Under the pieces are notes generated by a model, which saw only the letters and a list, made by a program, of their open reading frames with translations, searched no databases and was not told the origin of the DNA. Positions 7,240 to 59,022 of a stretch of DNA of 64,000 bases are shown here, in pieces. The stretch is from Candidatus Daviesbacteria bacterium RIFCSPLOWO2_01_FULL_39_23 (GTDB lineage Bacteria; Patescibacteriota; Microgenomatia; Daviesbacterales; UBA10151). The stretch lies in the NCBI GenBank assembly GCA_001776935.1, contig MFDN01000015.1, forward strand, positions 102,578-166,577, read 5' to 3'. Position numbers and translations under genes: made by a program. The stretch's first letter is position 1. The number at the start of each line of letters is the position of its first letter.

Positions 7240-7959
7240 TTATCTAATGAAAAAGGTTGAGGAAGTTGAGCTTTGATGATTTAAAGAATCTAGGATTGGA
7301 GGAATCTCTCTGATATCTTTTACTACGTAATCTGCTAAAGAAAAATCCGCTGTCTTCCTATTATGGTCAGCTTCTAATGCAATAAGTGTCAGCTTGGCCT
7401 CTTTAGCTGCTTTAAACCCGGGAGTAGAATCTTCCACTGCTACACATTCTCTCGGATTAAGACCAAACCTTCTGGCCATTTTCTGGTAAATTGCAGGATG
7501 AGGTTTCCCGTTTCTAACATCATCTTTATACAAACAAACGTTAAAAAAACGTAAAAGATCATACCTTTTAAGAAAAGGTTCAGCATTTGTTCTTCTTTGA
7601 GAAGTTGTCAATGCAAGAGGATAACCGCTTGATGATAAAGTCTGTAACACTTCTTCAAGGTGCTCAACCGGTTGGATTGCACCCCCTTGGTAGGCTTCTG
7701 CTATTCGTCCTTTGTGAATTCTAAACATTTCTGATAGAGGACGTCCAAGTCCCTGTGCTGCGCAGATAGTTCTTGCTGAGTCCGTAAACCTGAAGCCGGT
7801 ATGTTGGGCCATAAAATCTTCATCGGCACGGATATCAAATTCAGTTAAAATGCCAGCTTCTATCTTTCCGATTACCTCTTCTGACCTAGCAGAAGTTCCA
7901 TCGAAATCAAAACCAACTCCGCATTTTTTCCTAGCAGAACAGCGCACTACTTCAGTCAT
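7240..7959 (-). CDS. HAD-superfamily hydrolase, subfamily IA (phosphatase or beta-phosphoglucomutase-like)
   Basis: Motif I GFDFDGT. Motif III K in NGKPHPAIY. Motif IV VAVEDSTPGFKAAKEA. Confidence 0.75.
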   Translation of the reverse strand: MTEVVRCSARKKCGVGFDFDGTSARSEEVIGKIEAGILTEFDIRADEDFMAQHTGFRFTDSARTICAAQGLGRPLSEMFRIHKGRIAEAYQGGAIQPVEHLEEVLQTLSSSGYPLALTTSQRRTNAEPFLKRYDLLRFFNVCLYKDDVRNGKPHPAIYQKMARRFGLNPRECVAVEDSTPGFKAAKEAKLTLIALEADHNRKTADFSLADYVVKDIREIPPILDSLNHQSSTSSTFFIR

Positions 7960-15782: not shown

Positions 15783-16255
15783 GAAGTAAAAAAGCACCAA
15801 AAAATCTTTTATCTCCTGATCCAATTTTTGGATCAAGACTGCTTACCCGTTTTATAAATAAAGTAATGGAAGATGGGAAGAAATCCATTGCTCAAAAATT
15901 GGTTTATCAGGCATTGGAAGAAATAAAAGAACAGTCCAAAGAGGAGCCTTTGGTTGTGTTCGAAAAAGCTATTAATAACGTTGCGCCAAAAATGGAAGTT
16001 AGACCCCGCCGCGTTGGGGGAGCTTCATATCAGGTTCCTGTTGAAGTAAGGGGAGACAGAAAAGAAGCCTTAGCGATCAGATGGATTCTTGCAGGCGCCA
16101 GATCCAAGTCTAATAGCCAGTATCATTCGTTTGCTAAAAAGCTGGCGGCAGAACTTATGGATGCAGCCAATAACGCCGGTATTGCCATCAAGAAAAAAGA
16201 AGATGTGCAAAAAGCAGCTGCAGCCAATAGGGCCTTCTCTCACTTCCGCTGGTAA
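15779..16255 (+). CDS. rpsG: 30S ribosomal protein S7
   Basis: Canonical S7 sequence. Overlaps the rpsL stop. Confidence 0.95.
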
Positions 16256-16270
16256 CCATCTCTTTTCCCT

Positions 16271-16371
16271 GTCATCCTGAGGCGATTGGCCGAAGGATCT
16301 CTGAACTTGTTTCAGTTGCATTAATGTAGCTTATATTCATAAGAGATTCTTCAGCTTTGCTTCAGAATGAC
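16271..16371. repeat. nested-palindromic repeat element, copy B, running from GTCATCCTGAGG through GAAGGATCTCTGAACTTGTTTCAG and AGAGATTCTTCAG to CTTCAGAATGAC
   Basis: Same architecture as copies A and E. Lies immediately 3' of rpsG and abuts the GIY-YIG gene. Confidence 0.8.
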
Positions 16372-16373
16372 AA

Positions 16374-16667
16374 TTAGGGGTTAGATAGATCTTTGAATTC
16401 AGGATTAATTGTTTTTATTAAGTCCATTTTCTTTCTTCTTGTCCAGCCTTTAATTTTCTTCTCTGCCGCTATTGCCTCATTAATAGCTGAAAACTCCTGA
16501 TAATAGATTAATTTATTTAACTTATATTTGGATGTAAAAGAAGATATGGCTTTGAATGAGTGCTCAGAAATTCTTCTTTCCAGATTATTTGTTACTCCAA
16601 CATATAAGTTGCTTGATTTGTTAGTCAGGATATATACAAAATAGAAGATGACTAAATTGTATCTCAA
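16374..16667 (-). CDS. GIY-YIG nuclease family protein (UPF0213/YhbQ-like, 97 aa)
   Basis: VYILTNKSSNLYVGVTNNLERRISEH matches GIY-(10)-YIG with catalytic Arg and Glu. Confidence 0.85.
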   Translation of the reverse strand: MRYNLVIFYFVYILTNKSSNLYVGVTNNLERRISEHSFKAISSFTSKYKLNKLIYYQEFSAINEAIAAEKKIKGWTRRKKMDLIKTINPEFKDLSNP

Positions 16668-16674
16668 ATGAATT

Positions 16675-16711
16675 GAGAGATCCTTCGTCGACTCTGTCTC
16701 CTCAGGATGAC
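16675..16711. repeat. half-copy (C) of the palindromic element: AGAGATCCTTCG...CTCAGGATGAC
   Basis: Matches the right-half pattern of copies A, B and E. It forms the right terminal inverted repeat of the GIY-YIG cassette. Confidence 0.7.
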
Positions 16712-17086
16712 AAAAAATAGTTAAAGCATCTTAAATGGCAGCCGGAATGGAAATATCTGTTGAAGTGGTATGGTAATATATAATAACTATGGCTGAAAGA
16801 GATATTGGGAAAGGGCCGTTAGAGAGGATAATAGGGAAAGATCTTGGTGGGTTTGATGTTCCAGATAAATTAGAGTCGGCTTGCAGGATGGATTCATCTG
16901 AGTTGGAAATTTTAGCAGGAGCGCAGCGCCTGCCTGATCCCGCTGATAGTCCGGATTTAACACTAACTTCCAGGCAAATTGCACATAAAAGAACCAGAAA
17001 TGCTGTGCCACCTTTGAGATTAGTGCCATATTGGCGCCATTAATTGATTTGACTTTTAGGATCGAAGAAGTATAATATTGACAGTT

Positions 17087-17114
17087 GCCTCCCGGAGAAT
17101 GAGGGAGGCTTTTT
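17087..17114 (+). terminator. Rho-independent terminator-like hairpin GCCTCCC-ggagaatga-GGGAGGC followed by a T5 run
   Basis: 7-bp GC-rich stem followed by TTTTT. It closes the unexplained 16713-17077 segment. Confidence 0.6.
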
Positions 17115-17122
17115 GGATAAAT

Positions 17123-17350
17123 ATGGATGATAAATTAAGACAAGAAAAATTAAAGATGTGGAAGGCTAATTTAGCTGATCTGGAAGAGCAGTTAAAAATT
17201 ATTGCGCAAAAAAAAGGCGCTGCTGCTGCAGAGGGAGATTTATCTGAAAATGCGGCTTATTCTATGGCTATTGAAGATGCAGAGACAACCAGAGTAAGAA
17301 TTGGGGAAGTGAAAAAGATAATAAGGGATTTAGAGAAAGGAAGCAAATAA
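17123..17350 (+). CDS. stand-alone GreA/GreB N-terminal coiled-coil domain protein (about 75 aa) with no C-terminal FKBP-like domain
   Basis: EGDLSENAAYSMAIEDAETTRVRIGEVKKII matches the Gre-factor coiled-coil tip motif GDLKENAEY. The ORF track's earlier start at 17078 would run through the terminator hairpin. Confidence 0.6.
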   Translation: MDDKLRQEKLKMWKANLADLEEQLKIIAQKKGAAAAEGDLSENAAYSMAIEDAETTRVRIGEVKKIIRDLEKGSK

Positions 17351-17470
17351 TTTTCAAGAATCAATTCTCAATTTTCAATCAAATCTCAATGTGACAATTT
17401 TCAAACATTGAAAATTAAGCAATTGAAAATTCATTGTAAATTGTAAACTGAAAATTGTAAATTTCTTATT

Positions 17471-19609
17471 ATGGCTATACAAAAAACCAAAAGAGATTTT
17501 CCGCTGGATAGGATCCGTAACATTGGTATTATTGCTCACATTGATGCCGGAAAAACCACCACCACTGAGCGGATTTTGTTTTATACCGGAAAAACTTACA
17601 AAATCGGCAATATTGACGAAGGAACTACTGTTACTGACTGGATGGAGCAGGAGCGCGAGCGCGGGATCACCATTGTCTCAGCGGCCATCACAGCTTTTTG
17701 GACTGTTAAAAAAGGTCAATTTGAAGGTGAAGAAATGAGAATCAATTTGATTGATACTCCGGGCCATGTTGATTTTACTGCAGAAGTAGAACGATCTTTA
17801 AGAGTTTTGGATGGGGCAGTAATTGTTTTGGATTCCTCTTCCGGCGTACAGTCTCAAACAGAAACAGTTTGGAGACAAGCGAATAAATATAATGTGCCTT
17901 TAATTGCTTTCTCTAATAAGATGGATGTGGTAGGCGCAGATTTTGTTGCTACTATCCAAAGCGCCCGGGATAGACTTGGGGCCAACGCTATTGCTTACAA
18001 TCTGCCGATAGGCAGGGAGAATGATTTTAAAGGGGTGGTCGATTTATTAACTGAAAAAGCCATAATTTGGGAAGGTGATGAAACAGGTGCTAAGTTTCAT
18101 GAAACAGAGATACCGGCTGATATGATTGATGCGGTTAAGGTTGCCCGGGAAAAATTAGTAGAAGAAATCTCCGGTACTGACGATGTATTGATGGAAAAAT
18201 ATTTAGGCGGAGAGGCAATTACGATTGAAGAATTAAAAATAGCTTTAAGAAAAGCTGTGATTGCCAATAAAATTGTGCCTGTCTTTGCGGGCTCCTCCCT
18301 TAGGAATAAAGGTGTCCAACCAATGTTGGATGCGGTTGTTGAATATTTGCCATCGCCTCAGGATATCTTTACAGTAACCGGTATAAACCCGAAAACAGGT
18401 GAAGCAGAAGAAAGAAAAGGTGAATCCAGCGCGCCTTTGGCTGCTTTGGCTTTTAAAATTCAGGTTGATCCGCATGTAGGAAAATTAACCTATATCAGAG
18501 TTTATTCAGGCACTTTAAAGAGTGGTTCTTATGTTTACAATGTGACCAAGCAACTCAGGGAAAGAGTCGGCAGACTGCTTTTGATGCATGCTAATGACAG
18601 GGAAGAGATTGATGAGGCATTTGCAGGAGAAATAGTGGCAGCAGTAGGTTTGAAGGATACTATTACCGGCAATACACTTTGTGATGAAAGCGCTCCAATT
18701 ATTTTAGAATCTATAAGTTTTCCGGATCCGGTAATTTCCCTGGCAATTGAACCTAAGACAAAGAGCGATCAGGAAAAATTAGGTTATGCGCTGCAAAGAC
18801 TGGCTGAGGAAGATCCGACTTTCAGGGTAAAATCCGATCCTGAAACCGGGCAAACTATTATTGCCGGGATGGGTGAGCTGCAGCTTGAAATTTTGGTTGA
18901 CCGGATGAAAAGAGAGTTTAAGCTGGAAGCGAATGTGGGACAGCCGCAGGTGGCTTACAAAGAAACAATTACTAAAATTGCAGAAGGTGAAGGAAAATAT
19001 ATCAGGCAGACAGGGGGCCGGGGCCAATACGGACATTGTTTACTGCGGATCGAACCTTTGCCGCGCGGAACCGGCAGGGAGTTTGTGTCGGAAATTGTGG
19101 GCGGCGCCATCCCCAGAGAATTTATTTCACCGATTGAAAAAGGTGTTATTGAAAAAGAAGACACAGGTATTTTGGCAGGTTATCCTGTAACTGATATTAA
19201 AGTGGCAGTATATGACGGGTCGTTCCATGATGTTGACTCTTCCGAGGTAGCATTTAAGATTGCTGCATCTTTGGGGCTTTCTGAGGCAGCTAAAAAAGCA
19301 GATATGATTTTGCTAGAACCTATTATGAAAGTGGAAGTTACTACCCCGGATGAGTTTTTGGGAGAAATTATTGGCGATCTTTCTTCAAAAAGAGCGCAAA
19401 TTCTTTCTTCTGAAACCCGCGGAAATGCCAGGGTTGTGGTAGCTTTGGTGCCTTTGGCAGAAATGCACGGTTATGCAACAGCTATAAGGAGCATGTCTCA
19501 AGGAAGAGCCACATATTATATGGAAGCAGATCATTATGAAACCGTTCCTCAAAACGTTACTCAAAAGATTATAGAATCCTCAGGCTTCACAGGACGCGTT
19601 GAGCATTAA
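17471..19609 (+). CDS. fusA: translation elongation factor G
   Basis: G domain [15 protein letters not shown] and DTPGHVDF, with full domain II-V conservation. Confidence 0.97.
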
Positions 19610-19617
19610 TCATCTAT

Positions 19618-19720
19618 CGTCATTGCGGGGAATTTTTATCTTTCTTCTTCCGTCATTCCGAACTTGTTTCGGAATCTCTTTTGGAATACTAGAGATCCTG
19701 AACTAAATTCAGGATGACGG
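19618..19720. repeat. degenerate palindromic element copy D, reading CGTCATTGCGGGG ... CGTCATTCCGAACTTGTTTCGGAATCTC ... AGAGATCCTGAACTAAATTCAGGATGACGG
   Basis: Shares the GTCAT-CCGA, CTGAACTTGTTTC and TCAGGATGAC motifs with copies B and E. Sits between the fusA stop and the second GIY-YIG gene. Confidence 0.65.
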
Positions 19721-19721
19721 T

Positions 19722-20009
19722 TTAAAGTAAGGAATCATGCAGATCGTTAAAGTCCGGATTATTTCTTTTAATCAAGTTAATTTTCCATTCTCTATGCCAA
19801 TTTTTTAGCTGCTTTTCTCTTTTGATAGCTTCAATAATATCTTCATAGATTTCATAGTAAACAAGTTTGTTTACGTTATATTTGGAAGTAAAACCGGAGA
19901 CCACTTTCATTTTGTGTTGATAGATTCGTTTAATTAAGTTATCAGTTACCCCAATATAGAGAACGGTATTTATCTCATTCGTAAGAATGTAAACATAGGA
20001 ATATCTCAT
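19722..20009 (-). CDS. GIY-YIG nuclease family protein (95 aa), second copy
   Basis: YVYILTNEINTVLYIGVTDNLIKRIYQHK. Paralogous to 16374-16667. Confidence 0.85.
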   Translation of the reverse strand: MRYSYVYILTNEINTVLYIGVTDNLIKRIYQHKMKVVSGFTSKYNVNKLVYYEIYEDIIEAIKREKQLKNWHREWKINLIKRNNPDFNDLHDSLL

Positions 20010-20020
20010 ACCTATATTGT

Positions 20021-20062
20021 AGAGATTGCTTCCCCGGGATCAAGTCCGGAGTCGTAATGACG
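20021..20062. repeat. degenerate right-half-like element D': AGAGATTGCTTC ... GGAGTCGTAATGACG
   Basis: Resembles the right half of copy F (AGAGATTGCTACGCTAATCGCTCGCAATGAC). Flanks the second GIY-YIG gene on its 5' side. Confidence 0.5.
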
Positions 20063-20137
20063 TTTTTAGCCTCAGACTTCACGGGCCGTGTTAAACATTG
20101 ACTTGACAATTAATTGTGACTCCTCCATCATAAATGT

Positions 20138-42099: not shown

Positions 42100-42369
42100 C
42101 TAATTTACTTTAAACTTCTTAAAATCTTTTAAAGGACCATCGGAAACTTCAACTTTTTCCACCCGGGCCATATTTGAACCGGTGTGACACCAATGCAGGA
42201 ATTTTTCTAAATTATCTTTTTCTCCTTCTGCTTCAATATAGACTGAGCCGTCCGGCTGGTTTTGGGCAAAACCTTTAATGTCTAAATCATCAGCTTGTTC
42301 TTTGGCATTGGCTCTGAAAAATACCCCTTGGACCAAACCAGAGATCTTGATATTAAGATGTATATTCAT
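42100..42369 (-). CDS. acyP: acylphosphatase
   Basis: GLVQGVFFRANAKEQADDLDIKGFAQNQPDGSV is canonical AcyP. The 30 N-terminal residues in the ORF track read through repeat F and are rejected. Confidence 0.85.
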   Translation of the reverse strand: MNIHLNIKISGLVQGVFFRANAKEQADDLDIKGFAQNQPDGSVYIEAEGEKDNLEKFLHWCHTGSNMARVEKVEVSDGPLKDFKKFKVN

Positions 42370-42387
42370 AATTTCTCCGTAATTGCG

Positions 42388-42457
42388 AGGAGTCTTACGA
42401 CGAAGCAATCTTGAGTAATAATTAATAGAGATTGCTACGCTAATCGCTCGCAATGAC
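42388..42457. repeat. palindromic element copy F. The right half is intact (AGAGATTGCTACGCTAATCGCTCGCAATGAC) and the left half is degenerate
   Basis: The right half differs from copy E (AGAGATTCTTCGCTAATCGCTCAGAATGAC) at only 3 positions. Confidence 0.65.
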
Positions 42458-42469
42458 AATTAAAAGATT

Positions 42470-43445: not shown

Positions 43446-43519
43446 CGGGGAGTAGTATAGTGGTAACACGCCGCGCTGGGGGTGCGGCATCGGGAGTTCG
43501 ATTCTCCCCTCCCCGACCA
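43446..43519 (+). tRNA. tRNA-Pro (anticodon GGG), CCA-encoded
   Basis: Acceptor stem CGGGGAG/CTCCCCG. T-arm GGGAG-TTCGATT-CTCCC. Anticodon stem CCGCG/TGCGG with loop CTGGGGG. Discriminator A followed by CCA. The D-stem has one A:C mismatch. Confidence 0.85.
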
Positions 43520-45323: not shown

Positions 45324-45457
45324 AATAGTTCTAGAGAATCAGAAAGAGTGGATTTATCTATGAAAAAATTAATTCTCAAAACCAAGTCAGACTTGGTCAA
45401 AAAATTAATACTCCCTCTAAGCTTCGAGTAATCGGAGTCTTTTCTGATTCTGTTAAT

Positions 45458-45547
45458 GTCATCCTGAACATAGTGAAGGATCTCTGAACTTGTTTCAGAT
45501 GGATCTAGAATAAATCTAGAGATTCTTCGCTAATCGCTCAGAATGAC
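45458..45547. repeat. nested-palindromic repeat element copy E (90 bp), reading GTCATCCTGAAC ... GAAGGATCTCTGAACTTGTTTCAG ... AGAGATTCTTCGCTAATCGCTCAGAATGAC
   Basis: Full copy. It shares 24 consecutive nt (GAAGGATCTCTGAACTTGTTTCAG) with copy B. Confidence 0.8.
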
Positions 45548-54614: not shown

Positions 54615-55570
54615 CGACAGGTAAAACAGATTTGGCCTTAAACCTTGCTAAAAAATTTAACGGAGAATTATTATCTTGCGACTCAAGGCAGGTTTATCGG
54701 GGGCTGGATATTGGGACTGGAAAATATCCAAATTTAAATATCAAATATCAAATATCAAATATCAAAAAGAGGAAAGCGCATTGGGAAATAGAGGGGGTTA
54801 AAATCTCGATGTATGATGTGGCTGATCCAAAAAAACAATATACGGTTTATGATTTCATAAAAGACGCAACCCCAATCATTGATGATATTTTAAAAAGAGG
54901 AAAACTTCCTATTATAGTAGGGGGTACTGGGTTGTACTTAAAAGCTTTACTTGAGGGTATTCCTAATTTGGGAATCCCGGTTTCGGAGAAATTAAGGATG
55001 CAGCTGCAAAAACTTTCTAAAGATGAGCTGCAGGGAAAATTACAACAAATAGCTCCTGATAGATGGGAGCGTATGAATTACTCGGACAGACAAAACCCCA
55101 GAAGGTTAATCAGGGCAATAGAGATTGTCATTCAGCTCACTGTAAACAAGCTCAGGACTCAGGATGACAAAGGTAGAAGTCAAAATGACACTTACGTTTT
55201 AAAAATCGGATTAACTGCACCGCGCGATATTTTATATCAAAGAATCGATAAGCGGGTTATCATCAGGGTTAATCAGGGGATGATTGATGAAGCACAGCAG
55301 TTACATAAGAGGGGCCTGAGTTTAAAAAGAATGAGACAATTGGGGCTTGAGTATGGAGTTTTAGCTGATTTTCTGGAGGGCAAAATTAAAAGTAAGGAGG
55401 AATTGATTAAAGTATTGCAGGGCAAAATTCATGGTTTTGCCAGAAGACAGCTTACTTGGTTTAAGAAAGAGAAAAATGTATCTTGGGTTGATACAGAAGG
55501 TAGAAATTATTTCCAAAAAGTAGAGAATTTGATTTGTAAATGGTATGATAATCCTATAAATGTCGCATAA
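54566..55570 (+). CDS. miaA: tRNA dimethylallyltransferase with a lineage-specific insert that contains a perfect 7-bp x4 tandem repeat
   Basis: P-loop GPTSTGKTDLA and SCDSRQVYRGLDIGTGK, with a conserved C-terminal half. An insert NLNIKYQISNIKKRKAHWEIEGVKIS is present. Confidence 0.9.
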   Translation: MTLINNTRLVVILGPTSTGKTDLALNLAKKFNGELLSCDSRQVYRGLDIGTGKYPNLNIKYQISNIKKRKAHWEIEGVKISMYDVADPKKQYTVYDFIKDATPIIDDILKRGKLPIIVGGTGLYLKALLEGIPNLGIPVSEKLRMQLQKLSKDELQGKLQQIAPDRWERMNYSDRQNPRRLIRAIEIVIQLTVNKLRTQDDKGRSQNDTYVLKIGLTAPRDILYQRIDKRVIIRVNQGMIDEAQQLHKRGLSLKRMRQLGLEYGVLADFLEGKIKSKEELIKVLQGKIHGFARRQLTWFKKEKNVSWVDTEGRNYFQKVENLICKWYDNPINVA

Positions 55571-56540: not shown

Positions 56541-56838
56541 GGGGCCTGGGAAGAAGGATAATCGGTCCGCCTTTGGCGGACAGGAAAGTCCAGACAGCAA
56601 AAAGCAGGGTGATCTGCGTAAGCAGGTAGCCGTAAGGCCTAGTTAGAGTAACAGAAACGATCTGGGTGACGCCAGCTGAAACGACCAAGTGACTGGGTAT
56701 CCCGCCTTAAGGCGGGAGGACAATCCTCCCCGCTGCAATCCTAGAATCAACAGAGCCGCTTGCTCAATTGTTGTAATCAGGAGCATTAGATAAATGATTA
56801 TCTTGAAACAGAATCTGGCTTACTATCTTCCTAGGCAA
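56541..56838 (+). ncRNA. rnpB: RNase P RNA, bacterial type A, reduced in size (about 300 nt)
   Basis: P4 5' strand AGGAAAGUCCAGAC and P4 3' strand ACAGAAUCUGGCUUAC. P2 is GAUAAUC/GAUUAUC. P3 hairpin GUCCGCC-uuu-GGCGGAC. P1 is GCCUGGGAAGA/UCUUCCUAGGC. P5 region GCAGGGUG. A TATAAT lies at 56531-56536. Confidence 0.75.
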
Positions 56839-58701: not shown

Positions 58702-59022
58702 CTAAAATATTCTTAAATTCAGAAGATTGTTTTTTAAGAGAAAAAATAATGAAATTTGCGCTCCGATAGCCATAGAGGAAAGTATTAAAATTTTTGCCAA
58801 GTCGTGGCGTAGGTAAGCGAAATCGGTTCGGAACGACTCGGAATGACTCGGTGCGCCAGAGTATTGGTGTGTTAGAATTCCAGTTCCGGTTAACTGATTC
58901 TCCGATTTAACTGGTTCTCCGATTCTTTCTGAGTTTTCTGAATTCTTCCCATAGACTTGTCTGCGCAGTATTTGTAAGCGTTTTTCCAGGTCTGAAAGTT
59001 TTGCAGTTTGTTGGTATGCCAT
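58702..59022 (-). CDS. hypothetical small protein with a C-terminal hydrophobic helix. The coding status is uncertain
   Basis: The ORF contains low-complexity direct repeats (a 17-bp x2 repeat at 58890-58923). No homology recognised. Confidence 0.25.
   Translation of the reverse strand: MAYQQTAKLSDLEKRLQILRRQVYGKNSENSERIGEPVKSENQLTGTGILTHQYSGAPSHSESFRTDFAYLRHDLAKILILSSMAIGAQISLFFLLKNNLLNLRIF

Follow-up and report, generated by a model that had tools for sequence, protein, structure and literature searches.

Within the window, as the whole 64-kb stretch of Daviesbacteria DNA analyzed here is called, rpsG and fusA are separated by a gap of 1215 bp (Table 1). Following rpsG, this gap contains a doublet of hairpin-forming repeats, here termed arms, an ORF encoding a GIY-YIG nuclease, a single arm, an ORFan and finally a short gene with similarity to the GreA N-terminal domain (greA_N-like gene). 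An earlier description of this DNA, made from its letters only (the sequence-only reading), had assumed a spacing of 441 bp between rpsG and the next gene. This has to be corrected, since the true rpsG-fusA gap is the larger one and further genes are located inside. The greA_N-like gene is kept between rpsG and fusA in nearly all Daviesbacteria loci fetched, the usual order being rpsG, greA_N-like gene, fusA.

The nuclease gene is bounded by an inverted repeat. Here, the 11-mer GTCATCCTGAG at 16271-16281 on the plus strand has its exact reverse complement, CTCAGGATGAC, at 16701-16711, as had been described before. The perfect 11-bp repeat is thus real, but its true extent is longer (16 nt at 94%), and it belongs to structured arms of ~30-36 nt, of which it forms the outer portion. 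Allowing up to one mismatch, the 11-mer is present in eight copies in the window in comparison to 0.45 expected, and none of 100 shuffles reached eight.

Table 1. Coordinates of the genes, arms and doublets in the window (R1, covariance model built from arms of other loci).
Feature	Position	Strand	Evidence or remark
rpsG stop	16255		
3'-side arm (SRM variant), contains left 11-mer	16270-16301	+	R1 29.5 bits, E 5e-4
Inner small hairpin TCTGAActtgtTTCAGt adjoining arm	16300-16316	+	sequence, DNA folds
Extra arm, ATTCT/AGAAT type	16343-16372	-	R1 28.0 bits, E 1e-3
ssn-like gene, 97-aa single-domain GIY-YIG nuclease, TTG start	16374-16667	-	Pfam PF01541 8e-18
5'-side arm, contains right 11-mer	16677-16712	-	R1 29.1 bits, E 6.5e-4
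Lineage-specific DNA outside the repeat-bounded unit	16713-17045		contains 84-aa ORFan
ORFan, 84 aa	16789-17043		
Small gene resembling GreA N-terminal domain	17078-17350		Pfam GreA_GreB_N, 4e-8
fusA start	17471		
Decayed arm head	19619-19640		
Gene-less doublet directly 3' of second gene	19651-19719		fold -16.7 kcal/mol, z -5.2; R1 matches weak
First arm of this doublet, stem ATTCCGAA/TTCGGAAT	19651-19678	+	
Second arm of this doublet, stem ATCCTGAA/TTCAGGAT	19692-19719	-	
Second ssn-like gene, 95-aa GIY-YIG paralogue, just after fusA	19722-20009	-	
5' arm of second unit, head CGTCAT, stem ATTAC/GCAAT with one mismatch	20022-20063	-	
Gene-less doublet between two + strand genes	2355-2494		fold z -4.0
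Gene-less doublet, ATTGC/GCAAT type	42368-42458		R1 match 42428-42458; fold z -4.3
Gene-less doublet with two inner hairpins, intergenic	45457-45547		

The minus-strand gene for a 97-aa GIY-YIG protein, recognized already from the sequence, was confirmed by Pfam. The GIY-YIG domain spans residues 9-81 and its catalytic residues are intact, with G24, R32, H36, E69 and N88 being invariant in an alignment with 22 homologues (A1). Besides GIY-YIG, only the related T5orf172 reached its Pfam cut-off, and no DDE, HUH, serine or tyrosine recombinase did so. An AlphaFold2 model of the protein was obtained with a pLDDT of 82. By sequence and fold, the best matches among solved structures are UPF0213/YhbQ proteins (1zg2, 1ywl), with Slx1, also as a complex with 5'-flap DNA, in second place (7cq2 and 4xm5 being further matches of this set). 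However, the identity to these proteins is only 19-28%, and Slx1 furthermore contains a RING domain and depends on Slx4. The UPF0213 proteins, although structurally closest, are presumably filed by CDD in a different subfamily. For the prokaryotic Slx1-like proteins, inverted repeats are not mentioned in Dunin-Horkawicz (2006).

In total, 889 homologues were found at E <= 1e-5, and those with names are mostly from Patescibacteria. No phage homologues were found, and defence-system models gave no significant match. The sequence-only reading had pointed to homing nucleases, to which the catalytic fold and the association with inserted DNA would fit. The protein is however not of the I-TevI type: it consists of a single domain and scores 22 bits against TIGR01453 (group I intron endonucleases), far under the cut-off of 56, while it matches the general GIY-YIG family of Pfam. 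Endonucleases of the I-TevI type bind DNA via additional modules, cleave double-stranded target alleles and are found in introns or phage genomes, none of which applies here.

The arms follow a general plan of ~30 nt, consisting of the head TGTC, a 5-bp stem, tandem G·A, a variable tip and a C. In the 3'-side arm (16270-16301) this layout is represented by TGTC, the stem ATCCT/AGGAT, tandem G·A and the tip GGC..GCC, followed by C. What had been noticed as a complete nested palindromic element of ~100 bp is in fact a doublet of two inverted arms, 16270-16301 (+) and 16343-16372 (-). Together they form a complete gene-less doublet directly 3' of the nuclease stop codon, which folds as DNA at -15.4 kcal/mol (z -3.0). 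The gene-less doublet 45457-45547 and a further Daviesbacteria genome (L010) have counterparts of the small inner hairpin TCTGAActtgtTTCAGt adjoining their arms. The half-element on the other side of the gene was likewise identified correctly; according to a covariance model from arms of other metagenomes it is one arm, 16677-16712 on the minus strand, which ends 9 nt upstream of the nuclease start codon. Folded in isolation, this 5' arm is weak (-2.8 kcal/mol, z +1.0). In all three arms, GTC is present 5' of the palindrome and a C directly 3' of it.

The structure of the arms is also visible at the level of covariation. For this, 49 equal-length arms of other loci were picked by the spacing of the unpaired GA..GA alone and complementarity was ignored, and due to this the alignment is ungapped and independent of pairing. 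Here, T1 G2 T3 C4 A5 are invariant and the consensus at column 26, right after the stem, is C. Within the stem, 89% of the cells are paired in comparison to 77% in shuffles, and compensatory changes occur at six of the seven stem pairs, the variants being ATCCT/AGGAT, ATTCT/AGAAT, ATTGC/GCAAT, ACCCT/AGGGT and others. The covariation score of 0.454 (0.205 in shuffles) was reached by none of 500 shuffles, and slid controls remained at or below 0.14. As folded DNA the doublets display z-scores of -3 to -5, and the variable tip is often a GCGAAGC mini-hairpin. The covariance model R1, built from these 49 arms and none from the window, recovered six window arms at E < 0.01, three of them at the first gene.

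Within a unit, a single covarying pair often distinguishes one arm from the other (ATCCT vs. ATTCT), which was observed in 15 of 48 units (loci L018-L097). Since such arms differ at a covarying pair, each is self-complementary while the pairing between them is imperfect, and this imperfect inter-arm pairing might limit the formation of long palindromes. A co-evolution of the protein with the stem type of its arms was also considered; this was dropped, as the mean identities were only 60% vs. 57% and are confounded by GC content and phylogeny.

A search of the window for more repeat-bounded GIY-YIG units, as had been recommended, yielded a second unit, although no near-identical second copy. 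The two GIY-YIG ORFs are the only ones in the 64 kb, and the 95-aa paralogue is 53% identical to the 97-aa protein. The second unit copies the layout of the first one, with a 5' arm and a 3' doublet, and both units bracket fusA. The arms of its doublet (19651-19719) are of a continuous-stem type, unlike the tandem-G·A arms. In L116 the site of the second unit is empty, as gpsA lies directly after fusA (tblastn coordinates 6863 and 6868). Beside the second unit, CGTCATTGCGGGGAAT (19619-19640) resembles a decayed arm of the canonical GC-stem type known from the Neisseria NTS. This suggests that the genome has hosted repeats of more than one type.

At least three further doublets are present in the window at places without a nuclease gene. 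R1 matches lie at 2355-2384 (E 4e-3) and 2461-2494 in the first of them and at 45457-45484 (39 bits, E 6e-6) and 45519-45547 (E 3e-3) in the last, while in the doublet 42368-42458 the left head is mutated to GTAAT. It had been cautioned that the 11-mer could turn out to be a generic repeat irrespective of the gene. In part this applies, since it also occurs without the gene in these three doublets (2355-2494, 42368-42458 and 45457-45547), but it is nevertheless the cognate repeat of the gene.

This association was seen in a scan of metagenomes, which revealed 77 distinct loci with a homologous gene in organisms ranging from AT-rich to GC-rich. Both flanks were available for 68 loci. Under a strict rule, 48 of the 68 have arms on both sides, and 63 have at least one, so that the suggested tie between the GIY-YIG gene and a palindromic repeat is supported; the loci without arms under the strict rule mostly contain variant arms which the rule missed. 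Elsewhere in these loci the arm density is ~0.46 per kb. The units are 338-532 bp in length and their ends read T|GTCA...TGAC|A, at one end in 45 and at the other in 40 of 52 units. Near the genes the arms cluster and nest, and solo as well as tandem arms are common.

The closest counterpart is L010, where a 79-81% identical gene is present at the same place and convergent with rpsG, framed by TGTCATCCTGA..GAAGGATCTCT and AGAGATTCTTCG..CTCAGAATGACA. A relative with the gene at the same place could have lacked repeat termini; L010 has them, and the reading as an insertion unit is therefore not refuted by this comparison. In L016, a 70-72% identical gene lies between recR and ybaB and is framed like that of L010. 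In this locus, a motif-positive SRM (7592-7620) is found beside arms of the CTGA type.

Homologues are also present in cultured bacteria. On plasmid p3 of Azospirillum lipoferum 4B (L180), a homologue (41% identical, E 4e-25) lies between sufB and sufC and is flanked by four arms matching the published SRM motif. In S. meliloti (L179), a homologue (48% identical, E 6e-29) with one motif-matching arm lies between gltA and lpxB; here, two units are arranged in tandem. On plasmid p1 of Planktothrix agardhii (L178, NZ_LR882964.1), the GIY-YIG gene is located between an MmeI-type restriction-modification gene and the DISARM gene drmA and is surrounded by tandem gene-less doublets. Doublets were also observed inside annotated MmeI and BREX PglX coding sequences of Planktothrix plasmids (H21, H22).

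A system of this kind has been characterized in N. meningitidis, where SsnA is a 94-aa single-domain GIY-YIG protein (CDD cd10448). SsnA binds the NTS hairpin repeat CGTCATTCCCGCGMAVGCGGGAATCYRG (CGTCATTCCCGCG..GCGGGAATC) as single-stranded DNA only and cuts a few nucleotides upstream of the hairpin. For cutting, the three bases before the palindrome (GTC) are needed, and for binding the C after it. Homologues of Ssn across phyla have been reported with Ssn-related motifs (SRMs), 71% of them with one nearby and 42% with SRMs on both sides. The authors noted a likeness to insertion sequences and to REP/RAYT and raised mobility as an idea; Patescibacteria are not mentioned (Chenal et al., 2025, PMC11893778).

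Several features of the rpsG locus resemble this system: a single-domain GIY-YIG protein of ~95 aa, inverted and oriented hairpin repeats on both sides which start with (C/T)GTCAT, end with ATC and have a stem starting at A, and further copies of the repeat dispersed without the gene. Differences are the host, which is a patescibacterium (Daviesbacteria), the AT-rich arms with a 5-bp base, tandem G·A and a variable mini-hairpin tip in contrast to a continuous GC stem, and the two paralogous units bracketing fusA. The link to Ssn was drawn via the homologues of A. lipoferum and S. meliloti with their motif-positive SRMs (41 and 48% identity over the whole domain), which serve as a proxy for SsnA itself. 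Taken as a sequence-based assignment, the locus is very probably an Ssn/SRM system, i.e., a GIY-YIG gene flanked by inverted cognate hairpin repeats, with a variant of the SRM. The earlier view of an undescribed element has to be given up, because the repeat-gene-repeat architecture, the likeness to insertion sequences and the enzymology have already been published for Ssn (PMC11893778).

The published SRM motif, HGTCWYN(0-2)YYVSBRHN(0-5)WNVSBRGN(0-2)RNCYNB, is a search tool and no definition. It has four matches around the Azospirillum gene and one at the S. meliloti gene, in comparison to none in the window, L010, L111 and the Planktothrix locus, which shows that the arms of the latter represent a divergent repeat variant. 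The motif misses a large and widespread class of cognate repeats of the type TGTCAYYCTGA...GAAGRRTC, which is found in Planktothrix and many soil and groundwater metagenomes as well. Biochemically, Ssn/SRM has so far been characterized in Neisseria and Wolbachia only, and the assignment made here would extend it to the ultra-small Patescibacteria. Every such protein-repeat pair may offer a new specificity for tools that cut single-stranded DNA.

Other known systems share only part of these features. REP/REPIN-RAYT resembles the locus in that inverted hairpin repeats with a short conserved head lie on both sides of one nuclease gene, doublets are dispersed over the genome and inheritance is mostly vertical. 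In contrast, RAYT is an HUH/Y1 protein related to the TnpA of IS200/IS605 whereas the protein here is GIY-YIG, and the head is TGTC instead of GTAG or CGTC, so this is an analogy of architecture only. Elements of the IS200/IS605 type likewise are very small, create no target-site duplication and have subterminal hairpins recognized as single-stranded DNA. However, their end hairpins lie on the same strand while they are inverted here, their HUH transposase cuts and joins, and their copies are usually multiple and near-identical.

In analogy to SsnA of N. meningitidis, the arms would fold into hairpins when the DNA becomes single-stranded, as during replication, repair or DNA uptake. The protein would then bind the hairpin in one orientation only, via the conserved GTC that precedes the stem and the C that follows it, and the strand would be nicked a few nucleotides upstream, just outside the TGTCA head. 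Since the two arms are inverted, the predicted cuts lie on opposite strands, one at each outer end of the unit. The dispersed gene-less doublets may be further substrates.

That the unit had been inserted at this site, as suspected, was borne out by a comparison with related genomes, in which empty sites were found (L103, L116, L117, L171, L106 and L102). In the first three, no more than ~30 bp separate the rpsG stop from the start of the greA_N-like gene, and in the other three the rpsG stop is directly followed by the equivalent of the promoter/leader region at 17046-17105 of the window. L128 has a solo arm 6 nt after the rpsG stop, L111 a gene-less doublet, and L010 and the window have the gene plus arms. 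The right flanks of L111 and L010 match, which demonstrates that these sites are orthologous. Among 80 str-operon loci of species-representative genomes no GIY-YIG gene was present after rpsG. On the RpoC tree the empty, solo-arm, doublet and gene states are interleaved, and this requires repeated gain or loss. Because the intergenic site is empty in many Daviesbacteria, the unit was acquired there; with relatives that are empty or contain a lone arm, a doublet or the orthologous gene, the rpsG 3' site is an insertion with turnover. Inside the L111 doublet only one 21-nt match was found in the search for a remnant of the gene, barely above the shuffled maximum (27 vs. 26). The four states at one orthologous site represent a concrete system in which the mobility of the unit can be tested.

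Compared with empty sites, the extra DNA of the window comprises 16256-17045 and includes ~330 bp outside the unit. This segment (16713-17045) has no similarity to any fetched locus. Its ORFan, named hypothetical protein ACD_38C00165G0016 of an uncultured bacterium at NCBI, had no match but itself in a search of 5.8 billion proteins and is possibly no genuine gene. The segment was also considered as a remnant of the neighboring His_Phos_1 (histidine phosphatase) gene, of which no trace was detected.

Within the population the locus does not vary. All 15 contigs with a 99%-identical protein represent the same locus, and no presence/absence variation was observed across 39 contigs (15 + 24) of the same population. 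In comparison to the positional orthologue of L010, dN/dS is 0.09 with dS near saturation. The 97-aa protein is under purifying selection in this population and the unit is fixed. The proposed search for target-site duplications gave none: 44 of 52 units lack them and the remainder fit chance. Some IS families also lack target-site duplications.

One possible reading of the unit is an autonomous, IS-like transposon which moves via single-stranded DNA with the GIY-YIG nuclease as transposase, the doublets being derivatives similar to MITEs or REPINs. Such a reading extends the Ssn/SRM explanation rather than excluding it, and it is possible, if somewhat doubtful. The unit is compact with defined TGTCA...TGACA ends, one intergenic site is found empty or with a solo arm, a doublet or the gene in a patchy distribution across the phylogeny, the arms cluster and nest near the genes, homologues sit inside operons of cultured bacteria (sufB|sufC of Azospirillum, gltA|lpxB of S. 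meliloti), and the missing target-site duplication matches single-strand transposition of the IS200/IS605 type; moreover, the authors of the Ssn study raised the same idea (PMC11893778). On the contrary, no two near-identical gene-bearing copies were found, the two genes of the window having diverged as given above, and the 39 contigs of the population display no polymorphism. The positional orthologues (79% aa) have diverged to a similar degree as the housekeeping proteins RpoC (87%) and S7 (77%), which fits vertical inheritance, and a nuclease alone would lack a strand-joining activity. A GIY-YIG transposase is not known from bacteria. That the arm-gene-arm unit mobilizes itself with the doublets as passengers, and that the rpsG 3' end in Daviesbacteria has been repeatedly colonized followed by decay, is therefore rather unlikely in our view; if true, this would be the first class of bacterial transposable elements driven by a GIY-YIG enzyme. 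Acquisition at rpsG could have occurred by self-mobilization or by recombination between repeats, and mobility of the unit as such is plausible.

A homing endonuclease gene could instead have invaded the center of a pre-existing palindromic repeat as its target, with the doublets as uninvaded alleles. Indeed, the same arms are present at one orthologous site in L010 with the gene and in L111 without it, the GIY-YIG fold is classical for homing endonucleases, and the 95-aa paralogue has a weak match to a PHROG 'homing endonuclease'. Nevertheless, this is very improbable, since a DNA-binding domain is missing, the score lies well under the cut-off for group I intron endonucleases, and the doublet centers vary in length and sequence and thus offer no fixed target. 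Solo and tandem arms are common, the characterized relatives cut single-stranded DNA outside the hairpin and not double-stranded DNA at its center, and neither phage homologues nor an intron RNA (Rfam) were detected. Hardly conceivable is finally a coincidental adjacency of a housekeeping repair nuclease and unrelated REP-like terminators. It would account for doublets in intergenic regions, where terminators are expected, and for a conserved protein under purifying selection. Against this, 63 of the 68 genes are flanked by arms, in organisms ranging from AT-rich Patescibacteria to soil bacteria with GC-rich genomes, at a background of ~0.46 per kb; the arms have an oriented invariant head, needless for a terminator, and no terminator-like sites scored in 16100-17500.

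Some minor features of the window were also observed. Rfam searches over the window (gathering thresholds) and over 16200-16760 (E up to 10) gave only RNase P, a tRNA and noise; the ordinary RNAs are an RNase P RNA of class A (56546-56838, 112.7 bits) and a tRNA gene (43446-43516). A hammerhead-like reading of CTGA..GAA was dropped. An element inserted in-frame in miaA (55148-55190) was rejected as well, because the protein aligns with solved MiaA structures without an additional segment at this position. The fragment CGGAACGACTCGGAATGACTCGG (58820-58850) resembles the tail of an arm; it is part of a questionable ORF of 119 aa on the minus strand and is probably a decayed repeat which is spuriously translated. 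Upstream of the greA_N-like gene a near-consensus promoter is present (TTGACT, 16 nt, TATAAT; 17049-17076), followed by a conserved GC hairpin and a T-run (~17084-17110) resembling a leader or attenuator. Just upstream of fusA, an AT-rich block (17349-17463) contains repeated units of TTGAAAATT / AATTTTCAA, which form an imperfect inverted repeat of 56 nt with 71% complementarity.
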